A stretch of DNA of 64,000 nucleotides from Candidatus Termititenax persephonae (GTDB lineage Bacteria; Margulisbacteria; Termititenacia; Termititenacales; Termititenacaceae), in contig BGZO01000001.1 of assembly GCA_003864475.1 (NCBI GenBank), positions 26,799-90,798 of the forward strand, given 5' to 3'. How positions within the stretch are numbered: the stretch's first letter is position 1; each line of letters opens with the position of its first letter. Below the pieces are notes generated by a model, which made no database searches, had not been told where the DNA came from, and worked only from the letters and a program-made list of their open reading frames with translations. The translations under genes and the position numbers were made by a program. Below, piece after piece: positions 5,672 to 39,690 of this stretch.

Positions 5672-7406
5672 TTGCCAAGAATTACTGGGCTTATCGGACG
5701 GTGGCTACCGGGATTTTTTGCGCGGCGTACGCGCCTGTGTCCTGACCAATCTGCTGCTCTTGCTGTCTTTTGCCGTGATTATTCAGGCGGTCATTGTTCT
5801 CTTGGAGCCGTTGTTAAGCGGCGCGCCGTTAAATATTCGGCAGCTCTGGTTATTATTTGGCGTGGGTGCGGCGGTGGTTATGCTGTACTTTTTTGCCTAT
5901 CAAAATGAGTACCGTCAGACTTATACAGTGTCCTACAGCGAATCGGAGAAAATCCGGCTGGAAGTGGCGGAACATATTCGCCGCCTGCCGTTGAGTTTTT
6001 TCAATAACAAAGACTTGTCCGAACTGACCACCAATATAATGGCGGATTGCACCACCATCGAGCATGTCATGAGCCACGTGCTGCCGGGTCTGTGCGCGGA
6101 TATTATTGCGGCGGGTCTGGCCTGTGGCGCGTTGGCTTTTTATGACTGGCGCATGGCTCTGGCTTTGTTTGCCGCCTTGCCGCTGGCGCTGGGTCTGATT
6201 TTAGGCGGACGACAAATACAGGCTAAATTTGGCGAGCGTCATGTGCAGGCCAAGCTGAGAGTTTCAGACCAAGTGCAGGAATATCTGGACGGCATCAAGG
6301 TGGTCAAGGCTTTCGGACTGTCCGGCGAAAAATCCCGGGCGCTGGAAACAGCCCTGCGCTCGATGATGTTCGAGGCGATTAAATTTGAGGGAATTACCGG
6401 CACGGCTGTTACGCTGGCCATGATGATTCTGCAGGTGGGTCTCGGTTTGGTAACGCTGGTCGGCGTACTGCTTTTGCTGGGCGGCAGTCTGGACATTATC
6501 AAATTGTTGACTTTTATTATCATCAGTGCGCGTATTTATTCGCCGCTGATTGTCGTTTTTACCCTGCTGCCGGAACTTTTTTATTTTCTTATTTCCACAC
6601 GGCGTATGCAGGCTCTGCGCCGTGAGCCGCTTTTGGGCGGCGCGGAAGATATTGTTTTGCCGGACTACAATATTGAATTGAGAAATGTCAGCTTTGCCTA
6701 CAACAATAAAGATGTGCTGAAAAATATAAGCCTGAAAATTCCGCAAAATAGTGTTACTGCGCTGGTCGGACCGTCCGGCGGCGGCAAGACCACGGTCGCG
6801 CGCCTGATTGCCCGTTTCTGGGATGTGCGGTCAGGGGAAATATTGATTGGCGGCCAGAATATCTGCGGCATTGACCCGGAACGCCTGTTGCATTATATGA
6901 GTTTTGTTTTTCAGGACGTGGTGTTGTTTAACGACACGGTAATGAACAATATCCGTATTGGCAAACAGGACGCTTCGGATGCCCAAGTATGCGCGGCGGC
7001 TAAAATGGCGCGTTGCGACGAGTTTAGCCAAAGACTGCCGCAGGGTTACGCGACCATTATCGGCGAGAACGGCTGTACATTGTCGGGCGGCGAGCGTCAG
7101 CGTATTTCCATTGCCCGGGCGCTTTTGAAAGACGCGCCTATAGTCTTGCTGGACGAGGCCACCGCCAGCCTGGACCCGGAAAACGAAACCCAGATACAAG
7201 CGGCTCTGGCGGAGCTGGTCAAAGGCCGGACGGTTATCGTCATCGCGCACAGACTACGCACGGTGTTGGCTGCGGATAAAATAGCGGTGCTGGATAACGG
7301 GCGGCTGGTGGAGGAAGGCTCCGCCCTTGACTTGCCCAGGGACGGACTTTTCGCGCGGCTGTACAAACTGCAACAGGAAAGCCTGGGCTGGTCAATTAAG
7401 CGTTAG
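5664..7406 (+). CDS. ABC transporter permease/ATP-binding protein (second half-transporter, heterodimer partner)
   Basis: Same architecture (GPSGGGKTT, LSGGERQR, VLLDEATASLD). An 8-nt overlap with the upstream gene suggests translational coupling as a heterodimeric exporter. Confidence 0.85.
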   Translation: MFNCQELLGLSDGGYRDFLRGVRACVLTNLLLLLSFAVIIQAVIVLLEPLLSGAPLNIRQLWLLFGVGAAVVMLYFFAYQNEYRQTYTVSYSESEKIRLEVAEHIRRLPLSFFNNKDLSELTTNIMADCTTIEHVMSHVLPGLCADIIAAGLACGALAFYDWRMALALFAALPLALGLILGGRQIQAKFGERHVQAKLRVSDQVQEYLDGIKVVKAFGLSGEKSRALETALRSMMFEAIKFEGITGTAVTLAMMILQVGLGLVTLVGVLLLLGGSLDIIKLLTFIIISARIYSPLIVVFTLLPELFYFLISTRRMQALRREPLLGGAEDIVLPDYNIELRNVSFAYNNKDVLKNISLKIPQNSVTALVGPSGGGKTTVARLIARFWDVRSGEILIGGQNICGIDPERLLHYMSFVFQDVVLFNDTVMNNIRIGKQDASDAQVCAAAKMARCDEFSQRLPQGYATIIGENGCTLSGGERQRISIARALLKDAPIVLLDEATASLDPENETQIQAALAELVKGRTVIVIAHRLRTVLAADKIAVLDNGRLVEEGSALDLPRDGLFARLYKLQQESLGWSIKR

Positions 7407-24338: not shown

Positions 24339-27300
24339 TTGGGTATGCGAGTGTGGATGTGTGAATTGACTGCTACTTCTTCTCCTTCTTCTAGATATTA
24401 TACAATGATGTCCTCCCATGGTATGTCTGGTGAAAATCTTGCGGTAATGGAAAACGCTGATGAAGACCCCAATGAAGAGGGAGTACAAATTAGTGCGAAA
24501 AAAGCGGCAACGTCTCAAGATTTATTAAAGTTTATGTTAATAGATGTTGATAAAAAAATAGAAGAGGGGAAGCTTACTCCCGAAGATATAAAATACTTTA
24601 AAGATGTCTGGGACGAGGCAAAAGATACTCCTGCCGCAAGAACGGAATTACTTAACTACATCACGCGGACAGGTGAAGAAGGTTTATTGGGAAAAGTGAT
24701 TGGCGGAGACGCGGAGACGTTTAAGGAACTCTTGGATACCGCAATAAATTCATTGCCTTCTTCAATTACTACGCAAGGGAGATTAGTGGGATATCTCACG
24801 GAGAACCAAGATTTGTTGAATGCAGTGATAGGCACAGATACAGACAAGGCAAAAAACTTTATGGAACTCTTGAGCACCGCGAAAGATAATCCTGACGCGC
24901 AAGGGAAATTGCTGGGATATCTCATAGAGCAATACAATTCAGTCAATTCAGACAATAAAAATTTGTTGAAGGCAGTGATAGGGGAAGGCACAGACAAGGC
25001 AGAGAACTTTATGAAACTTTGGGATGCCGCGAACAACAATTCTGCCGCGCGAGAGAATTTGGTGAAATATCTCACGGACAGCCAAGATTTGTTGAATGCA
25101 GTAATAGATAGGAACGGAAACAAGACAGAAAACTTTATGGAACTTTGGGATGCCACGAACAACAATTCTGCCGCGCGAGAGAATTTGGTGAAATATCTCA
25201 CGGACAGCCAAGATTTGTTGAATGCAGTGATAGATAGGAACGAAAACAAGGCAGCAAACTTTATGGAACTTTGGGATGTTGCGAAAAACAATCTTGCCAC
25301 GCAAGAAAAATTGGTAGAAAAATACGAGGGATCCTTGTTAGGAAATATTGGTGTACACAAGATTAAGGAACTCTATGAGGCAACCAAAAATTTGGACTTA
25401 CTTGGCTGCGTAAGAAGTGAATTAAATGAATTATACAATAATCCTCCTAATCCTCCTAATGCTATTTCGCTTAAAATATTTGGCATAGTTGGTAAGGACT
25501 TAAGTCAAGCCAATTTTGGCGATAACGGTCGTGTCGATGGCAAAGGCCATACTACTGGCGGCTGGGCGCTTGGCTTGGTAACTGGCGAAGACGAAGCTGG
25601 CGGTATTGAGGGCGTGATTACGGCCGAGGAATTTCTTACTTGGCATAATAGTGATATTGATGAGTTTATTCGAGATATTGTTACTCTTTTTGGAGATGAT
25701 GCGCTGGCTGCCCTCGTAACGATGTCTAAACATTTGGGTGGAGAGGCGGAAAAGAAGCTGCTCGATAGGCTAATGACTTTTTATGATAATCCAGGCGTAA
25801 CCAATGTAAGGGACCCCCACTTTGCTTCAGCGCATATTACTCAACAAATTGCCGATGGCATCAATAAAGCTAGTGAAGATGGTGAGCCAGACTTCATTGC
25901 TTTACAATTAGTCTCCAAAATGAATGACAATCAATTGACCAAGTTACTGGTGTTTATGTATCAGTGTAGTGGAAATAGCGGGCAGTCAGTTGTGAATACA
26001 ATATTAAAAATGACAGGGCAAGAATCCCCAACAAGCGATGTCGGTAATCGGTTGTTGCATCAAGCATTGGAATTATACAGTGATACAGATGACCGTAGGA
26101 ATGGAGCGCATCCAATAGTGGGGAAGGCTATAACCGATGCAATTAATGTGATAATAGCAGGTGGGAATGAGGGTGCGTATAAGGATGAGTATAAAAATCT
26201 TTGTGATTACTTTTCGCGACCGGAGAACTCTGCCCAGTTAAGAAAAGTTGTTAGGCATTGTATTGACATAGATATCCCAAAAGATAAAGGTGATACTAAC
26301 GGTGATACTACAGAGGCTCAGGCCGTAAGAAAGTTATTGCTCGACGATAGAACCCAGAGAGCCACGCTAGGTTTTCTTGATGAGGCTTATGACCAGACTG
26401 GCGGGCGGATTTGGGATAGCGATGTCAAAGATTTTTTGAGAACATGTAAAAATGATAGTGCTATAAAAGACGACAATCCAGCATTGGCAAAAGCTTTAGA
26501 TACGGTAACAAATCCGGCCAATAGGGCCAGGATGAGAGCGGGACTTCCACCAGCTAGAGAGAAGAGTACGACACCCGAACAAATAAATGGTGGGACAGGA
26601 GGGTTGCACGTTGCTGCGCCCGCCGCCACGCCCGCGCCTGTACGTACCAAGGATGAGATAAAATTGGAGAATGAGGCAAGAGTCAGTGATATTTTTTATA
26701 AGGGGTTCACTGAAGAAGATTTTAAGGCACTAAAAGATAATGGCATAAATTTAGGATTAGATTACAAAGCATTTATTAAGATGGCCTCAACACAATTCAG
26801 CCAGTTTGAGTTTAGGGCAACTGGTGGTGGGGATGCTCAAAAGAAAGTTGTTACAGACTTTTTGACGGCTTACGCAAAAGCTCTTTCTCATGGGGATACC
26901 GACAATGGTAAAACGGCGATGCGAGAAGCCGTTATGCTGTTAACGGACCATGGTTTCACCAAAGCATTCTTAGAGGCATATACATCCGCAAATTATATCG
27001 CAGGATTCTTCGACAAAGGGAGTCCTCATGCCGGGGAGCAGTACAAGGCGGACGGCACTACGAACACTCAGGCTAAGTCCTATCACTATATCGGTAGTGG
27101 TTCCACCCGGGCGGCTGTCGATGCTTTCCACGACTGGGCGAAAAATAACGGGGGGGATATAGGGAGCGGCGCCGAATCTTCTTATATGAAAGCGATAAAA
27201 GGTGGTACCCCTGTGTTTGAGGGTGCTACATTTCTTGGCATTGACGTTACGTTAAATGGGATAAAACTAAGGATTAGGCCTGATGATGCAGTAATTAGCA

Positions 27301-27458
27301 AAATAAGCGGTGATGTTGAGGGTGAGGCATGGAAAGATGCCTTGCTGACTGAACTGAGAAGAGAAACCAGAACAGAAAACATCGGGTTTACGCTTACGAT
27401 ACCAAATGAACAAGATGGTATAGTCGAAAACAAAGCCCCCCAACTAGACCTGCCCTAG
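24339..27458 (+). CDS. large hypothetical repeat protein (1039 aa), no signal peptide, low-GC codon usage
   Basis: Long ORF in an AT-rich island. Residues about 120-330 form about five 42-aa tandem repeats (LLNAVIDRNGNKTENFMELWDATNNNSAARENLVKYLTDSQD). No recognised catalytic motifs. The start codon is uncertain. Confidence 0.6.
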   Translation: MGMRVWMCELTATSSPSSRYYTMMSSHGMSGENLAVMENADEDPNEEGVQISAKKAATSQDLLKFMLIDVDKKIEEGKLTPEDIKYFKDVWDEAKDTPAARTELLNYITRTGEEGLLGKVIGGDAETFKELLDTAINSLPSSITTQGRLVGYLTENQDLLNAVIGTDTDKAKNFMELLSTAKDNPDAQGKLLGYLIEQYNSVNSDNKNLLKAVIGEGTDKAENFMKLWDAANNNSAARENLVKYLTDSQDLLNAVIDRNGNKTENFMELWDATNNNSAARENLVKYLTDSQDLLNAVIDRNENKAANFMELWDVAKNNLATQEKLVEKYEGSLLGNIGVHKIKELYEATKNLDLLGCVRSELNELYNNPPNPPNAISLKIFGIVGKDLSQANFGDNGRVDGKGHTTGGWALGLVTGEDEAGGIEGVITAEEFLTWHNSDIDEFIRDIVTLFGDDALAALVTMSKHLGGEAEKKLLDRLMTFYDNPGVTNVRDPHFASAHITQQIADGINKASEDGEPDFIALQLVSKMNDNQLTKLLVFMYQCSGNSGQSVVNTILKMTGQESPTSDVGNRLLHQALELYSDTDDRRNGAHPIVGKAITDAINVIIAGGNEGAYKDEYKNLCDYFSRPENSAQLRKVVRHCIDIDIPKDKGDTNGDTTEAQAVRKLLLDDRTQRATLGFLDEAYDQTGGRIWDSDVKDFLRTCKNDSAIKDDNPALAKALDTVTNPANRARMRAGLPPAREKSTTPEQINGGTGGLHVAAPAATPAPVRTKDEIKLENEARVSDIFYKGFTEEDFKALKDNGINLGLDYKAFIKMASTQFSQFEFRATGGGDAQKKVVTDFLTAYAKALSHGDTDNGKTAMREAVMLLTDHGFTKAFLEAYTSANYIAGFFDKGSPHAGEQYKADGTTNTQAKSYHYIGSGSTRAAVDAFHDWAKNNGGDIGSGAESSYMKAIKGGTPVFEGATFLGIDVTLNGIKLRIRPDDAVISKISGDVEGEAWKDALLTELRRETRTENIGFTLTIPNEQDGIVENKAPQLDLP
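24690..25330 (+). repeat. in-frame 126-bp tandem repeat array inside the 1039-aa gene (about 5 units; the last two, 25053-25178 and 25179-25304, are near-identical)
   Basis: Seen at DNA and protein level. Confidence 0.8.
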
Positions 27459-27713
27459 TCGCTGACGACCCTGCTAACCCTGCTCCTAACCCTGGCACTA
27501 CTGGCCCTAACCCTGCTGGTGATGGTGCTGGTGGTCCCCCCGACTCCAACACCCCTAATAGTTGAAGAAGATAAGGCGGGGAGTAATTAAAAGCACAAGA
27601 CAATCCTTGACCCGCCGCCCCCGCGTAAGGAGCGACGCGGTTTGCTACCCAGCAGAGACCAGCCGGATTAGACGGGCGCAGATAAAACAATTCAGATTGA
27701 ACGTACGAATTCC

Positions 27714-28382
27714 GTGTCGGCGCAAAAAGGTGGTAGAATCCTGAGAGTTATCGAGAATTATAATTCTGACTTCAGAGAGGAAGAACACCCGCGCAATAAT
27801 AACGGCAAGTTTTCGACCAGTTCCGGTAGTGGCAGTAGCAAATCCAAGCCGCAAAAAACAGACCGCACACAGGAGACGGGCATGGCAGACGATTTAAAGA
27901 CCAAGAAGCAAAAGCAGGAAATTATCAGCCGTTTAGATAAAGATTATATTCAAACCGCTGAGGAATTTTTTGAGAAAGCCAAAGGCAAAATCAAACAACG
28001 CAAGGAAAAAGTGTACAGAAGTATAGACAAACAAGAAGCAAAAAGAATCAAAGATGTAACTGGACTTGATGTCGAAGGTTATGAACATAAAATAATAAAT
28101 GAGGATTTTGCGCACATATTCAGACGGCATGGTAATCCCAGAAAACAAGAAAAACTTGGACAGGTTGCGGTTACAAAAGATGATTTAAAACTCATACCCG
28201 AAATAACCAAAAATTACGACTCTCTCAAATTAAGCCCTGAAACATCTGAAGGTCGTCCTGTATTGGTTTACACTAAAAAAATAGGAAATGAATATTACTA
28301 CCTTGAAACTGTTGGCGGTAAAAAGACCAGAGATTTGCGGTCAAAAAGCATGTGGATTAGAAAGACGGGAACAACCGACTGA
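27714..28382 (+). CDS. hypothetical protein, 'expressed copy' of a three-member cassette family; N-terminal module GGRILRVIENYNSDFREEEHPRNNNGKF plus variable C-terminal domain
   Basis: GTG start with no clear SD. The ORF is in the same frame as the upstream 1039-aa gene. The first about 71 nt after Lys-5 are repeated at 28590 and 28965. The C-terminal region has an HIFRRHG motif. Confidence 0.55.
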   Translation: MSAQKGGRILRVIENYNSDFREEEHPRNNNGKFSTSSGSGSSKSKPQKTDRTQETGMADDLKTKKQKQEIISRLDKDYIQTAEEFFEKAKGKIKQRKEKVYRSIDKQEAKRIKDVTGLDVEGYEHKIINEDFAHIFRRHGNPRKQEKLGQVAVTKDDLKLIPEITKNYDSLKLSPETSEGRPVLVYTKKIGNEYYYLETVGGKKTRDLRSKSMWIRKTGTTD

Positions 28383-28445
28383 TGCCTATTAGTTTCCTAA
28401 CCCTCAATCTCTACGCCCAAAGCGTGGTCGTTCCCGCTATGAATA

Positions 28446-28589
28446 TATTATACCACAAAAGGACTACAATATACATGCAAGCCCCGCGTCTCAAAGATTC
28501 CTGCTGGTAGCCACTAGCACGTCAGTTGCAGCAGTTTTTCTTTGCGGCATATTTTGCCCAAGCTATTTGAGGCCGTAAAGAAACCGCAG
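28446..28589 (+). repeat. 144-bp direct repeat R1 (R2 28821-28964; R3 29587-29705), contains a CTGCTG...CAGCAG hairpin followed by TTTTTCTTT
   Basis: Three about 90%-identical copies, each following a cassette. The stem-loop plus T-run is compatible with a weak intrinsic terminator. Confidence 0.8.
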
Positions 28590-28753
28590 GTGATAGAATC
28601 CTGAGAGTTATCGAGAATTATAATTCTGACTTCAGAGAGGAAGAACACCCGTGCAATAATGAATATTATTATCTTGAAACTGTTGGTGGTAAGAGAACCA
28701 GAGATTTAAGGCCAAAAACGATGTACATAAAAAAAACCAGAAGCAGGCACTGA
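28590..28753 (+). pseudogene. decayed cassette 2: 5-prime module (with a 1-nt deletion, TTATAATT to TTTAATT) fused directly to the last 30 codons of a cassette-1-like tail
   Basis: Aligning module copies shows a single-base deletion. Apart from that deletion it is an in-frame internal deletion derivative (..EHPCNNEYYYLETVGGKRTRDLRPKTMYIKKTRSRH). No start codon. Confidence 0.6.
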
Positions 28754-28820
28754 ATGCGCCATATTTTTCAATATGTCCCTCGCTTAAACGTCCTAGACGC
28801 TCCTGCTTCTGGCATTATCA

Positions 28821-28964
28821 ATATTATACCACAAAAGGACTAAAATATACATGCAAGCCCCGCGTCTCAAAGACTCCTGCTGGCAACCACTAGCACGTCA
28901 GCTGCAGCAGTTTTTCTTTAAGGCATATTTTGCCCAAGCTATTTGAGGCCGTAAAGAAACCGCA
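28821..28964 (+). repeat. 144-bp direct repeat R2
   Basis: See R1. Confidence 0.8.
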
Positions 28965-29487
28965 GGTGGTAGAATCCAGAGAGTTATCGAGAATTATAAT
29001 TCTGACTTCAGAGAGGAAGAACACCCGCGCAATAATGACGGCAAGTTTACGTCTGGCGGAAATGGCTCGAGCAACATAAAATCAGACAGCGATAAAACAA
29101 TCAAAAAGGATGATAATGTGAAATACGAGAAAAAATCAAAATCCAAAAAAAAAAGAAGCGGACGATGCCATAGAAAAAGTAACGAAAACAAAAGGCGAAA
29201 CTACCGTTAAAGAGCTTCGTAACGATTTGGATGAATACGAGGGAACTAATGATGTTACTTTTATTTATGGAGATGAGAAAAAAGGTCTAAAACATATTGA
29301 GGATAAGCACGGCAAAGATGTAATTCCTAAAGTTGTAGATGCAGTTGTTTACGGCGAGATAAAAAAATATGTTCGGGCAAAGAAAACCATCCACTTAGAA
29401 AAAGATGGATATGAAGCCGTATTGTCGCTTGATGAATACGGGAAAAAGAAAACTTGGCTATTAACTGGTTGGGAAATAAATGATTGA
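28965..29487 (+). pseudogene. cassette 3: 5-prime module plus alternative variable domain, split by a frameshift at an A10 tract (29145-29154); removing one A gives a continuous ORF of about 174 codons
   Basis: Frame A reads GGRIQRVIENYNSDFREEEHPRNNDGKF...KSKSKKK and frame B continues EADDAIEKV...GLKHIEDKHG...WLLTGWEIND (the ORF-track 29227..29487 piece). No start codon upstream. Confidence 0.6.
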
Positions 29488-29586
29488 TATGTGGTGTTGG
29501 GTGGAAATAGCGAGGTTTGTGCTCAACTATTCCTACGCAGTCAAAGCCTACATTTAGTCGTCAGTGACTGGGAGCCAGCACCATAT

Positions 29587-29705
29587 ATATTATACCACAA
29601 AAGGACTAAAATATACAGGCAAGCCCCGCGTCTCAAAGACTCCTGCTGGCAACCACTAGCACGTCAGTTGTAGCAGTTTTTCTTTGCGGCATATTTTGCC
29701 CAAGC
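29587..29705 (+). repeat. 144-bp-family direct repeat R3 (terminal copy, diverges after about 119 bp)
   Basis: See R1. Confidence 0.75.
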
Positions 29706-29922
29706 AACCGTCATTATTGCCGTTTCCCAAGTTGCCAAACCTGCCTGCCATGATTTGGAAATTGCAGGATATAGCTAAAATGCCTGCCGCTAAAAATGAA
29801 GTGGAAATCAAAAAACTGAAAAGATTCATGGCTTAACAATCCGTGGACTTGGCCTACACTGTCTAAGTGGAGATAAAAATAACGGCCACGACTATTTTTG
29901 AGAAAAAAAGGAGCGGCTTGAA

Positions 29923-30129
29923 ATGGTGAAAAAAATGAAAAAGAAAATTGTGTTTGATTTAGACCCCGATGAACAAAACATAGAAGACCAACTGGAGACT
30001 TTTGTGCCTGCCTCGGCTGAGACCGCTGGCGAGTGTGGTTTGCCGTACCAGACTTTTATCACAATGGTTTTGCATAAATATGTTACCGACCAATTCGTTG
30101 ACCGCAATGAGGTCAAAAAACTTTGGTAG
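29923..30129 (+). CDS. orphan RHH/BrnA-like antitoxin family protein (68 aa)
   Basis: The C-terminal GLPYQTFITMVLHKYV resembles the BrnA GIPYQTLINLYLR block. Good SD AAAGGAG. No cognate toxin ORF upstream. Confidence 0.5.
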   Translation: MVKKMKKKIVFDLDPDEQNIEDQLETFVPASAETAGECGLPYQTFITMVLHKYVTDQFVDRNEVKKLW

Positions 30130-30191
30130 ATAAAGACCGGGGCGTGAATTTTTTTGCTTCCCGCGGTTTCGCGATATGCTACAATAAACCC

Positions 30192-30425
30192 ATGTCCACC
30201 GAGAACACCGAGCGCATTTTAGCTGAACTGGCCGCCGCGCGGTTTGCGCCGCCGGGGTCAGCTTATGCCGCGCATCGGGCGGGGATATACCCTGCCTTCC
30301 AGGATTTTGTAGAAATCACGTCCCGGCATATCGCTGACCCGCGGATTTTGGCGGAGCTGGAGTTGATGGGCCAAAAACTGCAAAAAGAGACTGTGGAGAG
30401 AGGACAGCATGAGCGGCAAAATTAA
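30192..30425 (+). CDS. hypothetical small protein
   Basis: ORF MSTENTERILAELAAARF... overlaps the argC start. No family recognised. Confidence 0.3.
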   Translation: MSTENTERILAELAAARFAPPGSAYAAHRAGIYPAFQDFVEITSRHIADPRILAELELMGQKLQKETVERGQHERQN

Positions 30426-31428
30426 AATCGGCATAGTTGGCGCGACGGGGTACACCGGGGCGGAGCTTGTCCGCCTGCTCCTTGACCATCCCTTGGCGGA
30501 GATTCGCTGCCTGACGACCACCTCGGCGGCGGGGCAGGACCTCGCCGGGATTTATCCGTTTTTGCGCCCGCGTTTCTCGCAAACGCTCGTCGAGTATAAG
30601 CTGGACGAGGTTAAAAATCTGGACATGGTTTTTATCTGCCTGCCGCACGGCAAGTCTATGGAGATTGCCCCGGAACTGGTAAATGCTGGCGTAAAAGTTA
30701 TCGACCTCGGTGCGGACTTTCGTTTTCGCGACTTGGCCGCCTATGAGCAGGCCTACCAAAAACATGCCGCCCCGGAAATGAACGCGCAGGCTGTTTACGG
30801 CCTGCCGGAATATCACCGCGCCCGGCTAAAGAAAGCGCGTCTGGTCGCCAACCCGGGCTGTTACGTTACGGCGGCGACGCTGGCCTTGAAGCCGATTGTC
30901 GACGGTCTGGCGTATCTTCCCGGTTCGATTATCATCGATGCCAAATCCGGCGTGTCCGGGGCGGGGCGGGCTTTGCGGCAGGACACTCATTTCTTGGAAG
31001 TCTATACCAATTTTTCGGCCTACAAAATCGGCGCGCATCGCCATCAGCCGGAGATAGAGCAAAATATCGGCGACTCTGTGGTTTTCGTGCCGCAATTATT
31101 GCCAGTAAATAGGGGCATTTTGGCCACAATTTACGTGAAGTTGCGCGAAAAATTATCTACTGAGGACGCGCTGGCCGTTCTGCGCCAAAAATACCGGGAC
31201 GAGCCTTTTGTCCGTGTCGTGGACGAACCGCCGACGCTCAAGGACGCGCTGGGCAGTAATTACTGCCTGATTTCGGCCAAGATTGTCGGCGACGGCGGGC
31301 AGTTGGTTTTGCTGTCCGTCTTGGACAATCTGGTCAAGGGCGCGTCTGGTCAGGCCGTGCAGAATATGAATATAATGTTTGACCTGCCGGAGACTATGGG
31401 TTTGGAGAGGCCTGCTCTCAATCCGTAA
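30409..31428 (+). CDS. argC: N-acetyl-gamma-glutamyl-phosphate reductase
   Basis: KIGIVGATGYTGAELVRLL N-terminus and active-site Cys region (ANPGCYVT). Confidence 0.9.
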   Translation: MSGKIKIGIVGATGYTGAELVRLLLDHPLAEIRCLTTTSAAGQDLAGIYPFLRPRFSQTLVEYKLDEVKNLDMVFICLPHGKSMEIAPELVNAGVKVIDLGADFRFRDLAAYEQAYQKHAAPEMNAQAVYGLPEYHRARLKKARLVANPGCYVTAATLALKPIVDGLAYLPGSIIIDAKSGVSGAGRALRQDTHFLEVYTNFSAYKIGAHRHQPEIEQNIGDSVVFVPQLLPVNRGILATIYVKLREKLSTEDALAVLRQKYRDEPFVRVVDEPPTLKDALGSNYCLISAKIVGDGGQLVLLSVLDNLVKGASGQAVQNMNIMFDLPETMGLERPALNP

Positions 31429-38236: not shown

Positions 38237-39690
38237 AAGTCTATCTCGCGGGTTTTAATATTGACTCCGAAGTCATTGCGGACTTGCGAGGGGACAGTCG
38301 GCGTTTGGACATCACGCCGGAGACGCTTTCCGCCGCCTATGCGCGTATCTCCCGCGACCCGCGCCCGGTCAATGAATTGCGCCGCGCGGCGCGCGCCGAG
38401 GTGGAAAAAGCGCGTCAGTCCAATCAAGCGATTATTTTTGGTCTCGGGCATAGTTCCGTTGCTGAGCACGCGGTGTTTAACTTTGATGTGCTGGATTTGA
38501 GCCGCCGTGCCATGGAGGAATTAGAAAAATTTCGGCTCTGCTCTTTCACGGAAAAGTCCCAGCGTTATATTACTTTGGACAGCGCTTATTACACGCCGCC
38601 GGAGTTAAGAGCCACGCGCTTTGAGCCGCTTTTTCACGCGCAGGTCAAACAACAGAACGAGTTGTACGGTGCGTTATTGGACAGGCTGAAAGCTTATGTT
38701 TTGCACAGGCACAGTGATTTGGCTGCTGACCCGAAGAACAAAAATTTGCTGGAAGGTTATGCCAAAGAGGACGCACGCTACATTACCTCGCTGGCGACTT
38801 TTTCGCAGGCAGGCATGACGGTCAATGCCCGCAATCTGGAAAAGATGCTGCGGCGTTTTGCCTCCAGTCCTTGTCCGGAAATAAATAATCTCGGCACGGC
38901 CTTGCATGCCTTGGTCAAAGATATCGCGCCGTCGATTATCAAGTACCCGGGAGCCAACGCTTATGACCGCGACACATATCGCGAATTGGCTGAATACACG
39001 CAAAAAACAGCCAATGTTTTTGGCATAACTTCACGAAAAACCAAGGCATGTGCCTTGCTGGATTATACCAAGGGCGGAGACGATAAGATTTTGACCGCCT
39101 TGGCTGTCAAATCTGCCAATCTAGATTGGCGGTCGTCCACCCGGCTGGTCAAGAAGCTGAAAAAATCCCAGAAAAAAGAGATGTTCAGACTTTGCGTCAA
39201 GAACATGCAGGCTTGGGACCAGATGCTCCGGGAGTTTGAATTGGTGGATTTGACTTTTGAATTGGTCGTGTCGGCGAGTTGTTTTGCCCAGTTGAAACGC
39301 CACCGCCTGGCCACTTTACTGTCCGCCGACTATGACCCCGCCCTAGGTTTGCGTGTGCCGTCGGCGATTGAGGCGGTCGGTCTGGCGGAAGAGTTTGTCC
39401 GGGTGGCGGAGGCGAGCGCCGAATTGTCCGCCGAGATTGGGCAGGAATTTCCTCGGGCGGCGGGTTATCTCCTGACCAATGCCCATCAGCGGCGCGTGAT
39501 TTGCCGCGTCAATCTGCGCGAGCTTTACCACATCTCCAGACTGCGCGAGGACGCGCATGCCCAATGGGACATTCGGGAAATCACGGCACAGATGACGGCT
39601 CTGGCCAGAAAAGTCCTGCCCCTGACCGCCTCTTTTATCGGCGGCAAGGATGCCTGCTCGGAATTGCGGCGCAGGCAGATTACAACTTGA
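38233..39690 (+). CDS. thyX: FAD-dependent thymidylate synthase ThyX, tandem-domain (485 aa)
   Basis: The first half carries the ThyX signature ([10 protein letters not shown]...SFTEKSQRY, i.e. RHR/S...SxRY-type). The second half keeps RHRLAT but is degenerate. Twice the usual ThyX length. Confidence 0.6.

Follow-up and report, generated by a model that had tools for sequence, protein, structure and literature searches.

Phage-derived PBECR nuclease cassettes with predicted antisense small-RNA genes form a tandem array in Candidatus Termititenax persephonae

Nucleases of the PBECR families are widespread predicted effectors of phages, known from MuF toxins (Jamet et al., 2017, PMC5576092) and from polyvalent proteins, and we found no antidote described for them; in the paper that defined the families (Iyer et al., 2017, PMC5512222), the terms "antisense", "small RNA" and "noncoding" do not occur. 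In type I toxin-antitoxin systems such as bsrG/SR4 (PMC3834814) and yonT/SR6 of the prophage SP-beta (PMC5848175), a convergent antisense RNA of ~90-100 nucleotides (nt) covers the 3' end of the toxin gene, and the orphan cassettes of Rhs/CdiA polymorphic toxins (cited in PMC5576092) place divergent toxin domains behind a conserved 5' segment. Here we analyse a stretch of 64,000 nt from Candidatus Termititenax persephonae (Margulisbacteria, termite gut; contig BGZO01000001.1, positions 26,799 to 90,798; called the window hereafter, with all coordinates referring to it), in which three related cassettes, units A, B and C, lie in tandem at 27.6-29.7 kb. We consider it rather probable that these are three type I-like toxin/antisense-RNA modules of phage origin, arrayed in tandem through recombination between repeats that consist of a segment termed R and the 5' module of the following unit.

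Under this explanation the cassettes would derive from phage virion effectors of the portal, minor-capsid or polyvalent-protein lineage, each composed of a 5' module with a linker, an RNase domain of the PBECR family, a small-RNA gene on the opposite strand and the 5' end of a dead small open reading frame (ORF). Unit A would be a complete module, unit B an orphan RNA gene and unit C a decayed module of the PBECR1 type.

The ORF of unit A (27714..28382, + strand) encodes 222 amino acids (aa), is 100% identical in its product to the hypothetical protein NO2_0039 of Ca. T. persephonae, and belongs to PBECR3 (PF18812; 62.9 bits against a cut-off of 30, E 3.3e-17 in Pfam). It keeps every invariant column of a 17-sequence family alignment, including the conserved His/Glu positions. 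In the AlphaFold (AF2) model, the predicted local distance difference test (pLDDT) mostly exceeds 90 at residues 60-216, and residues 1-52, which comprise the module and the linker, are disordered; the fold corresponds to that of the BECR-type RNase toxins (like barnase, EndoU, colicin E5/D and the RelE toxins). No MuF domain and no second effector domain was found in the units of the window with Pfam. The GTG start of the ORF lacks a Shine-Dalgarno sequence, whereas an in-frame ATG at 27882 is preceded by AGGAG (27871-27875) and agrees with the start of most orthologues. For these reasons the product is probably a solo PBECR3 RNase of 166 aa starting at that ATG.

The 60-100 nt that follow each toxin stop codon form a stem that spans the stop, with a sequence that varies between loci. 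An initial model of a plus-strand RNA element (a terminator or recoding signal) was dropped because the mismatch spectrum, a G.U-rich third helix, promoters and U-tails all point to the minus strand: read on the plus strand the stem is 86.9% paired, with mismatches that are mostly A.C, which correspond to G.U on the minus strand, where pairing reaches 91.5%. RNAalifold independently recovers a 13-bp closing helix, the hairpin ACGCUUCGGGCGU and the third helix on the minus strand. In the full minus-strand structure of 23 pairs, 90.8% of cells pair compared with 40-50% when the partners are slid, 17 of the 23 pairs have changed on both sides, and the observed pairing was reached in none of 500 shuffles. 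A translated peptide was also considered for the trailer (frame "LRPKR"); it is locally conserved, but stops block it and the registers differ between loci. No Rfam family matched either strand of window 26000-31000 at E values up to 1. Judged from this covariation, the trailer after each toxin is a predicted small-RNA gene, conserved on the minus strand.

Antisense RNA gene A (28355..28441, - strand) scores 88.4 bits with covariance model R2 and has a minimum free energy (MFE) of -34.2 kcal/mol (z -5.5). It consists of the 13-bp closing stem P1, the P2 hairpin ACGCUUUGGGCGU, a third helix P3 and a U-rich tail, and the final 28 nt of the unit A ORF, stop codon included, fall within it. Gene B (28727..28816, - strand; 74.8 bits with the same model, MFE z -4.4, tail U8, promoter at 28823-28831) is intact though the toxin of unit B is deleted, which leaves it an orphan. 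A candidate gene C of the PBECR1 type (29470..29584, - strand) has nucleotide homology to the phage locus L054, and its P1 covaries at six of seven pairs (RNAalifold, three sequences); it is probably decayed.

We infer transcription of these RNAs from signals at both ends of the predicted genes, which would be ~85-115 nt long, begin 3-6 nt past an extended -10 box, adopt a closed three-helix fold and end in a U-run. The extended -10 promoter of antisense RNA A, TGGTATAAT (28447..28455, - strand), lies within the first 17 nt of R1, the first copy of R. These 17 nt (ATATTATACCACAAAAG) read CTTTTGTGGTATAAT on the minus strand, which places the extended -10 box 3-6 nt upstream of the helix, and at the equivalent position other loci carry a full TTGACA-16/17-TATACT, TATAAT or close variants. 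Promoter scores of at least 10 out of 12 were obtained at 9/16 covariance-model hits compared with 0.2% of random anchors in the same loci, scores of at least 11 at 6/16 hits compared with 0.045% of such anchors, and scores of at least 9 at 13/16 hits, in 11 of 14 loci. At the other end, the U-run after the closing helix corresponds to the terminal lysine codons of the toxin on the plus strand.

The covariance model recovers the held-out loci L014 (1e-7), L001 (2e-6), L026, L021/L023, L019 and L027, each time directly after the PBECR3 domain; a match in L040 was judged a false positive. In the last four of these (L026, L021/L023, L019 and L027) the antisense element lies inside polyvalent ORFs of ~1300-2700 aa, and the proteins of L015-L027 measure 800-2700 aa. 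The region after a solo PBECR1-like gene in the phage head module of L054 combines a perfect TTGACA-17-TATAAT with a closing stem that covaries and a tail of U7. In P0020, a PBECR1-type ORF of L056, the linker peptide "..PTFSR..LGA..LNNII..DVD" coincides with the body of the antisense RNA and its -10 box, and -10 and -35 boxes of the opposite strand are spelled by Ile and Val-Lys/Asn codons of the equivalent linker in the PBECR3-type ORFs of L026, L021/L023 and L027. The protein motif of the linker may partly reflect the RNA gene on the other strand.

The antisense RNA could pair with the 3' end of the toxin messenger RNA and so limit toxin expression, like those type I antitoxins of Bacillus prophages that overlap their toxin genes at the 3' end; a direct binding of the RNase by the RNA is a less likely alternative. 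By either route, an RNA antidote would explain the absence of an immunity ORF. The earlier note on this DNA had seen no immunity-like ORF and considered this atypical; indeed none lies between the units, but the predicted small-RNA gene over the 3' end of each toxin now stands as a candidate antidote.

The structured element might instead be a site of recombination or cassette mobility at the level of DNA, comparable to integron attC or to single-strand hairpin sites, and this would explain the shuffling of PBECR domains between polyvalent proteins and sites on chromosomes. In all contexts studied, domain boundaries within polyvalent ORFs included, it lies at the 3' boundary of the PBECR cassette, the cassettes occupy many unrelated chromosomal sites, and structure is kept while stem sequence varies, as in attC sites. 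However, the sequence of the stem arms holds none of the RYYYAAC / GTTRRRY core sites, so that an integron attC or gene cassette was rejected; the element does not form a long imperfect hairpin in its interior, and its G.U pairs, promoter and U-tail fit an RNA rather than a DNA site. No recombinase was noticed among the scanned ORFs, though no dedicated integrase search of the whole window was made. We regard a mobility site as very improbable.

Turning to the architecture of the array, a module of 72 nt occurs at 27729, 28589 and 28965 with pairwise identities of 96-99%, where zero copies are expected by chance. The three copies reported earlier are thus real, although they are not strictly identical, have 72 rather than 71 nt, and the second starts at 28589 instead of 28590. 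Copy A (27729..27800, + strand) encodes GGRILRVIENYNSDFREEEHPRNN, and its homology with copy C extends to 27815. Homology had been described as beginning exactly at the module, which holds for units B and C compared with A; the flank of unit A itself is a conserved pre-module segment (27590..27728, + strand), a decayed coding sequence "..DQPD*TGADKTIQIERTNS.." that is shared with positions 1-140 of the Margulisbacteria locus L010, where the same place reads "GDQPDQTGANKTIQIEHTNS" without a stop.

The second repeated segment, R, is present in two copies of 144 nt that are 95% identical, R1 (28445..28588, + strand) and R2 (28821..28964, + strand). Each of them abuts the following module, giving a single R+module repeat of 218 nt. 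The third copy, R3 (29587..29705, + strand), forms the right edge of the array and differs from the 144-bp repeat that the earlier note placed after each unit: it is truncated to 119 nt, ends abruptly at "gcccaagc", has its start mutated from ATG to AGG, and carries an extra TAG. Nor is R a plain flanking repeat, as it had been taken to be, since it begins with the antisense promoter and continues into the 5' end of a small ORF that is dead here and intact in relatives. In R1 the ORF starts with an ATG at 28475, in frame with the next module, and runs for ~37 codons ("MQAPRLKDSCW*PLARQLQQFFFAAYFAQAI*"). A 1-nt insertion is common to all three copies of R, each of which has further lesions; because this frameshift is shared, the small ORF must have been dead already at the time of triplication.

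Homologues of the small ORF are the intact ORFs of 66-72 codons that follow PBECR3 in L001 and L012, two loci that are syntenic with each other (tRNA-Leu, cassette, fur). These intact ORFs ("M..HLKD.YW.PIA.QL..FFF..YF.KLF..", L001 900-1130 and L012 1240-1460) are conserved over their first ~33 residues only, and they could encode an immunity protein or represent a native neighbouring gene. The small ORF of R has no match in Pfam, PHROG or PADLOC and no viral relatives. The idea that R is the 5' end of a MuF or immunity gene was not retained, given that no family matches it and most PBECR3 loci lack the ORF.

The stretches that separate module and R are not alike in the three units: their trailers are 45-54% identical, the toxin tails of A and B 77%, and unit C has a domain of another family. 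This mosaic pattern, in which the copies of the repeats differ by 1-5% and enclose unrelated sequences, excludes an assembly duplication, one of the findings by which the earlier note would have considered itself refuted. Near-identical R+module junctions around divergent interiors instead point to homologous recombination, by which the array could have been grown and homogenised through exchange between the 218-nt repeats, either by unequal exchange or by gene conversion with cassette replacement.

In agreement with the earlier description of one startable gene and two silent or decayed cassettes, units B and C are decayed orphans without a start: neither has an in-frame start between the upstream stop and the module. 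The remnant of unit B (28589..28753, + strand) consists of the module, with HPR changed to HPC, and the last 31 codons of a different PBECR3 allele, and its deletion junction shows an AAT microhomology. Unit C (28965..29487, + strand) combines the module, a Lys/Ser-rich linker and a PBECR1-like domain and contains a +1 frameshift within a run of ten A (29145-29154), which could be due to slippage, phase variation, or a sequencing or amplification error. A run of nine A at this place would restore the frame.

Unit C itself matches PBECR1 (PF18809) weakly (20.7 bits against a cut-off of 27.6), and in alignment A7, which comprises unit C and 12 homologues, PF18809 matches 5 of 13 sequences at E <= 0.01, with a best value of 1.1e-9. 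By these profile matches the domain appears to be a divergent relative of PBECR1. Together with the PBECR3 assignment of unit A this bears out the proposal, coupled to a Pfam check for PBECR, that the variable domains belong to toxin families. In the homologues of unit C the reading frame stays open through "..EVS..TQ..PTFSR..LGA..", in some of them as far as a zincin HExxH motif, whereas in the window tblastn recovers this continuation, on the plus strand of the DNA of candidate RNA gene C, only as the decayed sequence "GNSEVCA..PTQSKPTFSRQ*LGA" with a frameshift and stops.

Such traces of decay raise the question whether the whole array is nothing but a decaying, tandem-duplicated fragment of a polyvalent-protein gene from a phage or an integrative and conjugative element, its hairpins being relics or simple terminators without a role as antitoxin. 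The trailer of unit C is indeed decayed polyvalent-protein sequence, unit B is a deletion product, a frameshift common to all copies of R is accompanied by further stops, the region is low in G+C, and P1 with its U-run by itself resembles a terminator. Yet an intact PBECR3 ORF persists in unit A, as it does in at least eight related loci whose modules are absent or decayed, and RNA pairing has been kept through many compensatory changes, together with a correctly placed promoter, even inside intact phage ORFs; this argues for selection on the RNA element rather than for a relic. A terminator, moreover, would need no promoter of its own 3-6 nt upstream. We therefore hold decay as the full explanation to be unlikely, though it is the least unlikely of the alternatives weighed here.

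The module itself has the motif GGRxxxVI...DFxExEHPRxxxGKF, followed by a low-complexity linker. DFxExEHPRDNDGKF with a Gly/Ser linker stands between a Phage_portal_3 and a Zeta-like domain in phage contig L005, the motif occurs at the N-termini of other effectors in phage contigs L006 and L007, and P0011, which consists of the module and PBECR3, is encoded within a phage tail module. PBECR3-like C-termini are also found on portal proteins of Burkholderia phages in GenBank, and the homologues P0016 and P0017 have a MuF-like C-terminal motif, as judged by eye. From these occurrences the module can be described as a generic junction or linker motif of phages that joins portal proteins or short N-termini to effector domains, and a conserved 5' module in front of variable domains, as first noted from the array, is thereby confirmed. 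A pattern scan for the module in GTDB genomes gave zero matches, one for the trailer found a single contig that was already in the locus set, and a scan of metagenomes returned one locus. In most Margulisbacteria loci the module is absent or decayed and the PBECR3 ORF intact, and the relatives have single cassettes at unrelated sites, beside tRNA-Leu/fur, dprA/hupA, murC and polA. In L008 and L013, which belong to two related genomes, a solo PBECR3 gene directly follows dprA and precedes the convergent hupA, with an ATGA stop/start overlap read in L008. This suggests that the solo gene was domesticated into a host operon and its antisense RNA kept.

The array was originally read as a polymorphic-toxin locus, and an active locus of this kind would have one expressed gene into which silent cassettes are swapped at the module, for toxin specificity or antigenic variation. 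The layout does resemble the orphan arrays of Rhs/CdiA in its conserved 5' module, its variable toxin domains and the missing starts of its downstream units, and modules that are 96-99% identical make recombination between them feasible. But the units have no trafficking domain and no immunity ORF, unit B has lost all but 31 codons of its toxin domain, unit C carries a frameshift and then runs into decayed coding sequence with stops, relatives have single cassettes at unrelated sites, and translation of the expressed product probably begins downstream of the module, at 27882. What remains of the original reading is the toxin family, an ancestry of the phage/MuF type and the status of B and C as orphans, but not the delivery gene; nothing indicates programmed gene conversion or antigenic variation.

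Upstream, an ORF of 1039 aa (24339..27458, + strand) with 42-aa tandem repeats shares the reading frame of unit A, but it is a conserved gene in its own right and not an N-terminal carrier of the toxin. Among 1.84 billion representatives, an exhaustive HMMER search yielded just two relatives, P0033 and P0034, with whose extreme C-termini residues 554-1020 align. As these homologues end at the same point, the stop codon at 27458 is native, and the contig of one of them (L028) is syntenic with the window and has the gene without the array. On the same two grounds, a toxin carrier broken by frameshifts was rejected. An active polymorphic-toxin locus appears to us quite unlikely, more so than plain decay.

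Several points weigh against the preferred explanation, that of type I-like modules multiplied by recombination. The antisense RNA and the ORF share only ~28 nt, the usual type I toxin is a small hydrophobic peptide and not an RNase of 166 aa (PMC6563280), and the RNA of unit C folds weakly (z -1.7). Inside the polyvalent ORFs conservation may be partly attributable to the encoded peptide (linker LNNII..DV[DK], P0020). The promoter and terminator calls are matches to a consensus that may not be that of Margulisbacteria, and few sequences are involved (9 in the model and ~16 hits, some of them closely related), with rough E-values. Furthermore, an R that was dead before triplication fits local duplication as well as serial acquisition.

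The site that holds the array seems to be a variable one. In L028 the large gene is followed by a brnT-family toxin gene and two small ORFs (75 and 64 aa), then by argC, argJ, argB and more arginine genes, and positions 6254-6795 there are the counterpart of 27459-30190 in the window; the 64-aa ORF is conserved in the window. Since L028 holds a brnT-family toxin module where the window has the array, the spot at ~27459-30190, between the large gene and argC, is variable as judged from this synteny. It resembles a hot-spot for toxin modules. G+C content is 37-50% across ~24.0-30.0 kb of the window and mostly 50-58% in the flanks.

Downstream of the array, an ORF of 68 aa (29923..30129, + strand) shows weak similarity to CopG-type antitoxins (Pfam PF12441, E 0.037, below threshold) and has no PADLOC match; it lies in the same variable spot, though not demonstrably as part of the array. 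A brnT remnant at the right edge of the array was considered and found unsupported. On the minus strand an ORF of 57 codons (29656-29829), hydrophobic in its N-terminal half and without a family match, extends into R3 and may be spurious or a truncated gene. Directly after the stop of the large ORF, the -1 frame of 27461-27562 encodes a Pro/Asn/Gly-rich stretch of 34 codons that may be a remnant linker.

The 1039-aa ORF itself has no family match in Pfam, PHROG or PADLOC. With four to eight 42-aa tandem repeats, low G+C and only distant homologues, yet syntenic in L028, it may encode a rapidly evolving protein with a role at the surface or in interactions of this ectosymbiont lineage. A thyX-like gene lies beside the large gene in L028 (1-1099) but 11 kb downstream in the window (38553-39651), which indicates local rearrangement between the two genomes.

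Whether the pairing seen here is general can be stated only tentatively: it is possible, and we would not put it higher, that RNase domains of the PBECR families, solo or within giant polyvalent proteins, are generally accompanied by a dedicated antisense small RNA at their 3' boundary. With a conserved antisense RNA on the domain, the tolerance of producers to these nucleases would be explained. Such RNAs would constitute a new class of RNA antitoxins for enzymatic toxins, spread across phages and bacteria beyond the phyla with known type I systems, and would widen the range of type I-like antitoxins to include phage polyvalent proteins and the candidate phylum Margulisbacteria. The RNA gene would sometimes lie within coding sequence and constrain the linker peptide PTFSR..LGA..NNII..DVK, which would clearly exemplify a small-RNA gene lying antisense in a linker that codes for protein, with both strands under selection, and unit B would be an orphan RNA antitoxin kept after the loss of its toxin. 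For annotation, "spacers" and "flanking repeats" of toxin cassette arrays can conceal RNA genes.

How, then, does the locus compare with the described systems? With the PBECR proteins of phages and the MuF toxins it shares the PBECR3 family and, judged from the PBECR1-like domain of unit C, probably PBECR1, as well as the phage origin, the existence of solo versions and the junction motif that precedes the effector domain, and homologues of unit C resemble polyvalent proteins in extending into a zincin (HExxH) peptidase domain. Unlike the MuF, portal and polyvalent fusions, the window has solo cassettes in tandem on a chromosome, with no MuF, no portal and no multi-domain polypeptide. The Rhs/CdiA orphan cassettes are similar in their conserved 5' segment, their divergent toxin domains and their partly decayed units without a start, and the array likewise has variable C-terminal toxins behind a conserved segment, with orphan cassettes downstream. 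It differs in having three units only, a short phage junction motif, no large delivery protein and no protein immunity gene: the ORF of unit A has ~5 codons before the module and thus no N-terminal delivery domain, and no intact ORF lies between the units, the small ORF of R being disrupted in all three copies.

Type III systems are set apart from the array by the absence of short tandem repeats upstream of its toxins, and the RNA is single-copy, downstream and antisense. The array is closest in layout and presumed function to the type I pairs bsrG/SR4 and yonT/SR6, with which it shares the convergent arrangement, an antisense RNA of comparable length over the 3' end of the toxin gene and the link to prophages or phages; the antisense RNA gene is encoded in cis, as predicted from promoter, covarying structure and U-tail. 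In contrast to these pairs, the putative toxin is a soluble BECR-fold RNase domain of 166-222 aa (166 aa from the probable start) and not a small hydrophobic membrane peptide, and the RNA gene, here predicted from sequence alone, can in phages sit inside a large ORF. Partial precedents for enzymatic type I toxins are SymE and RalR.

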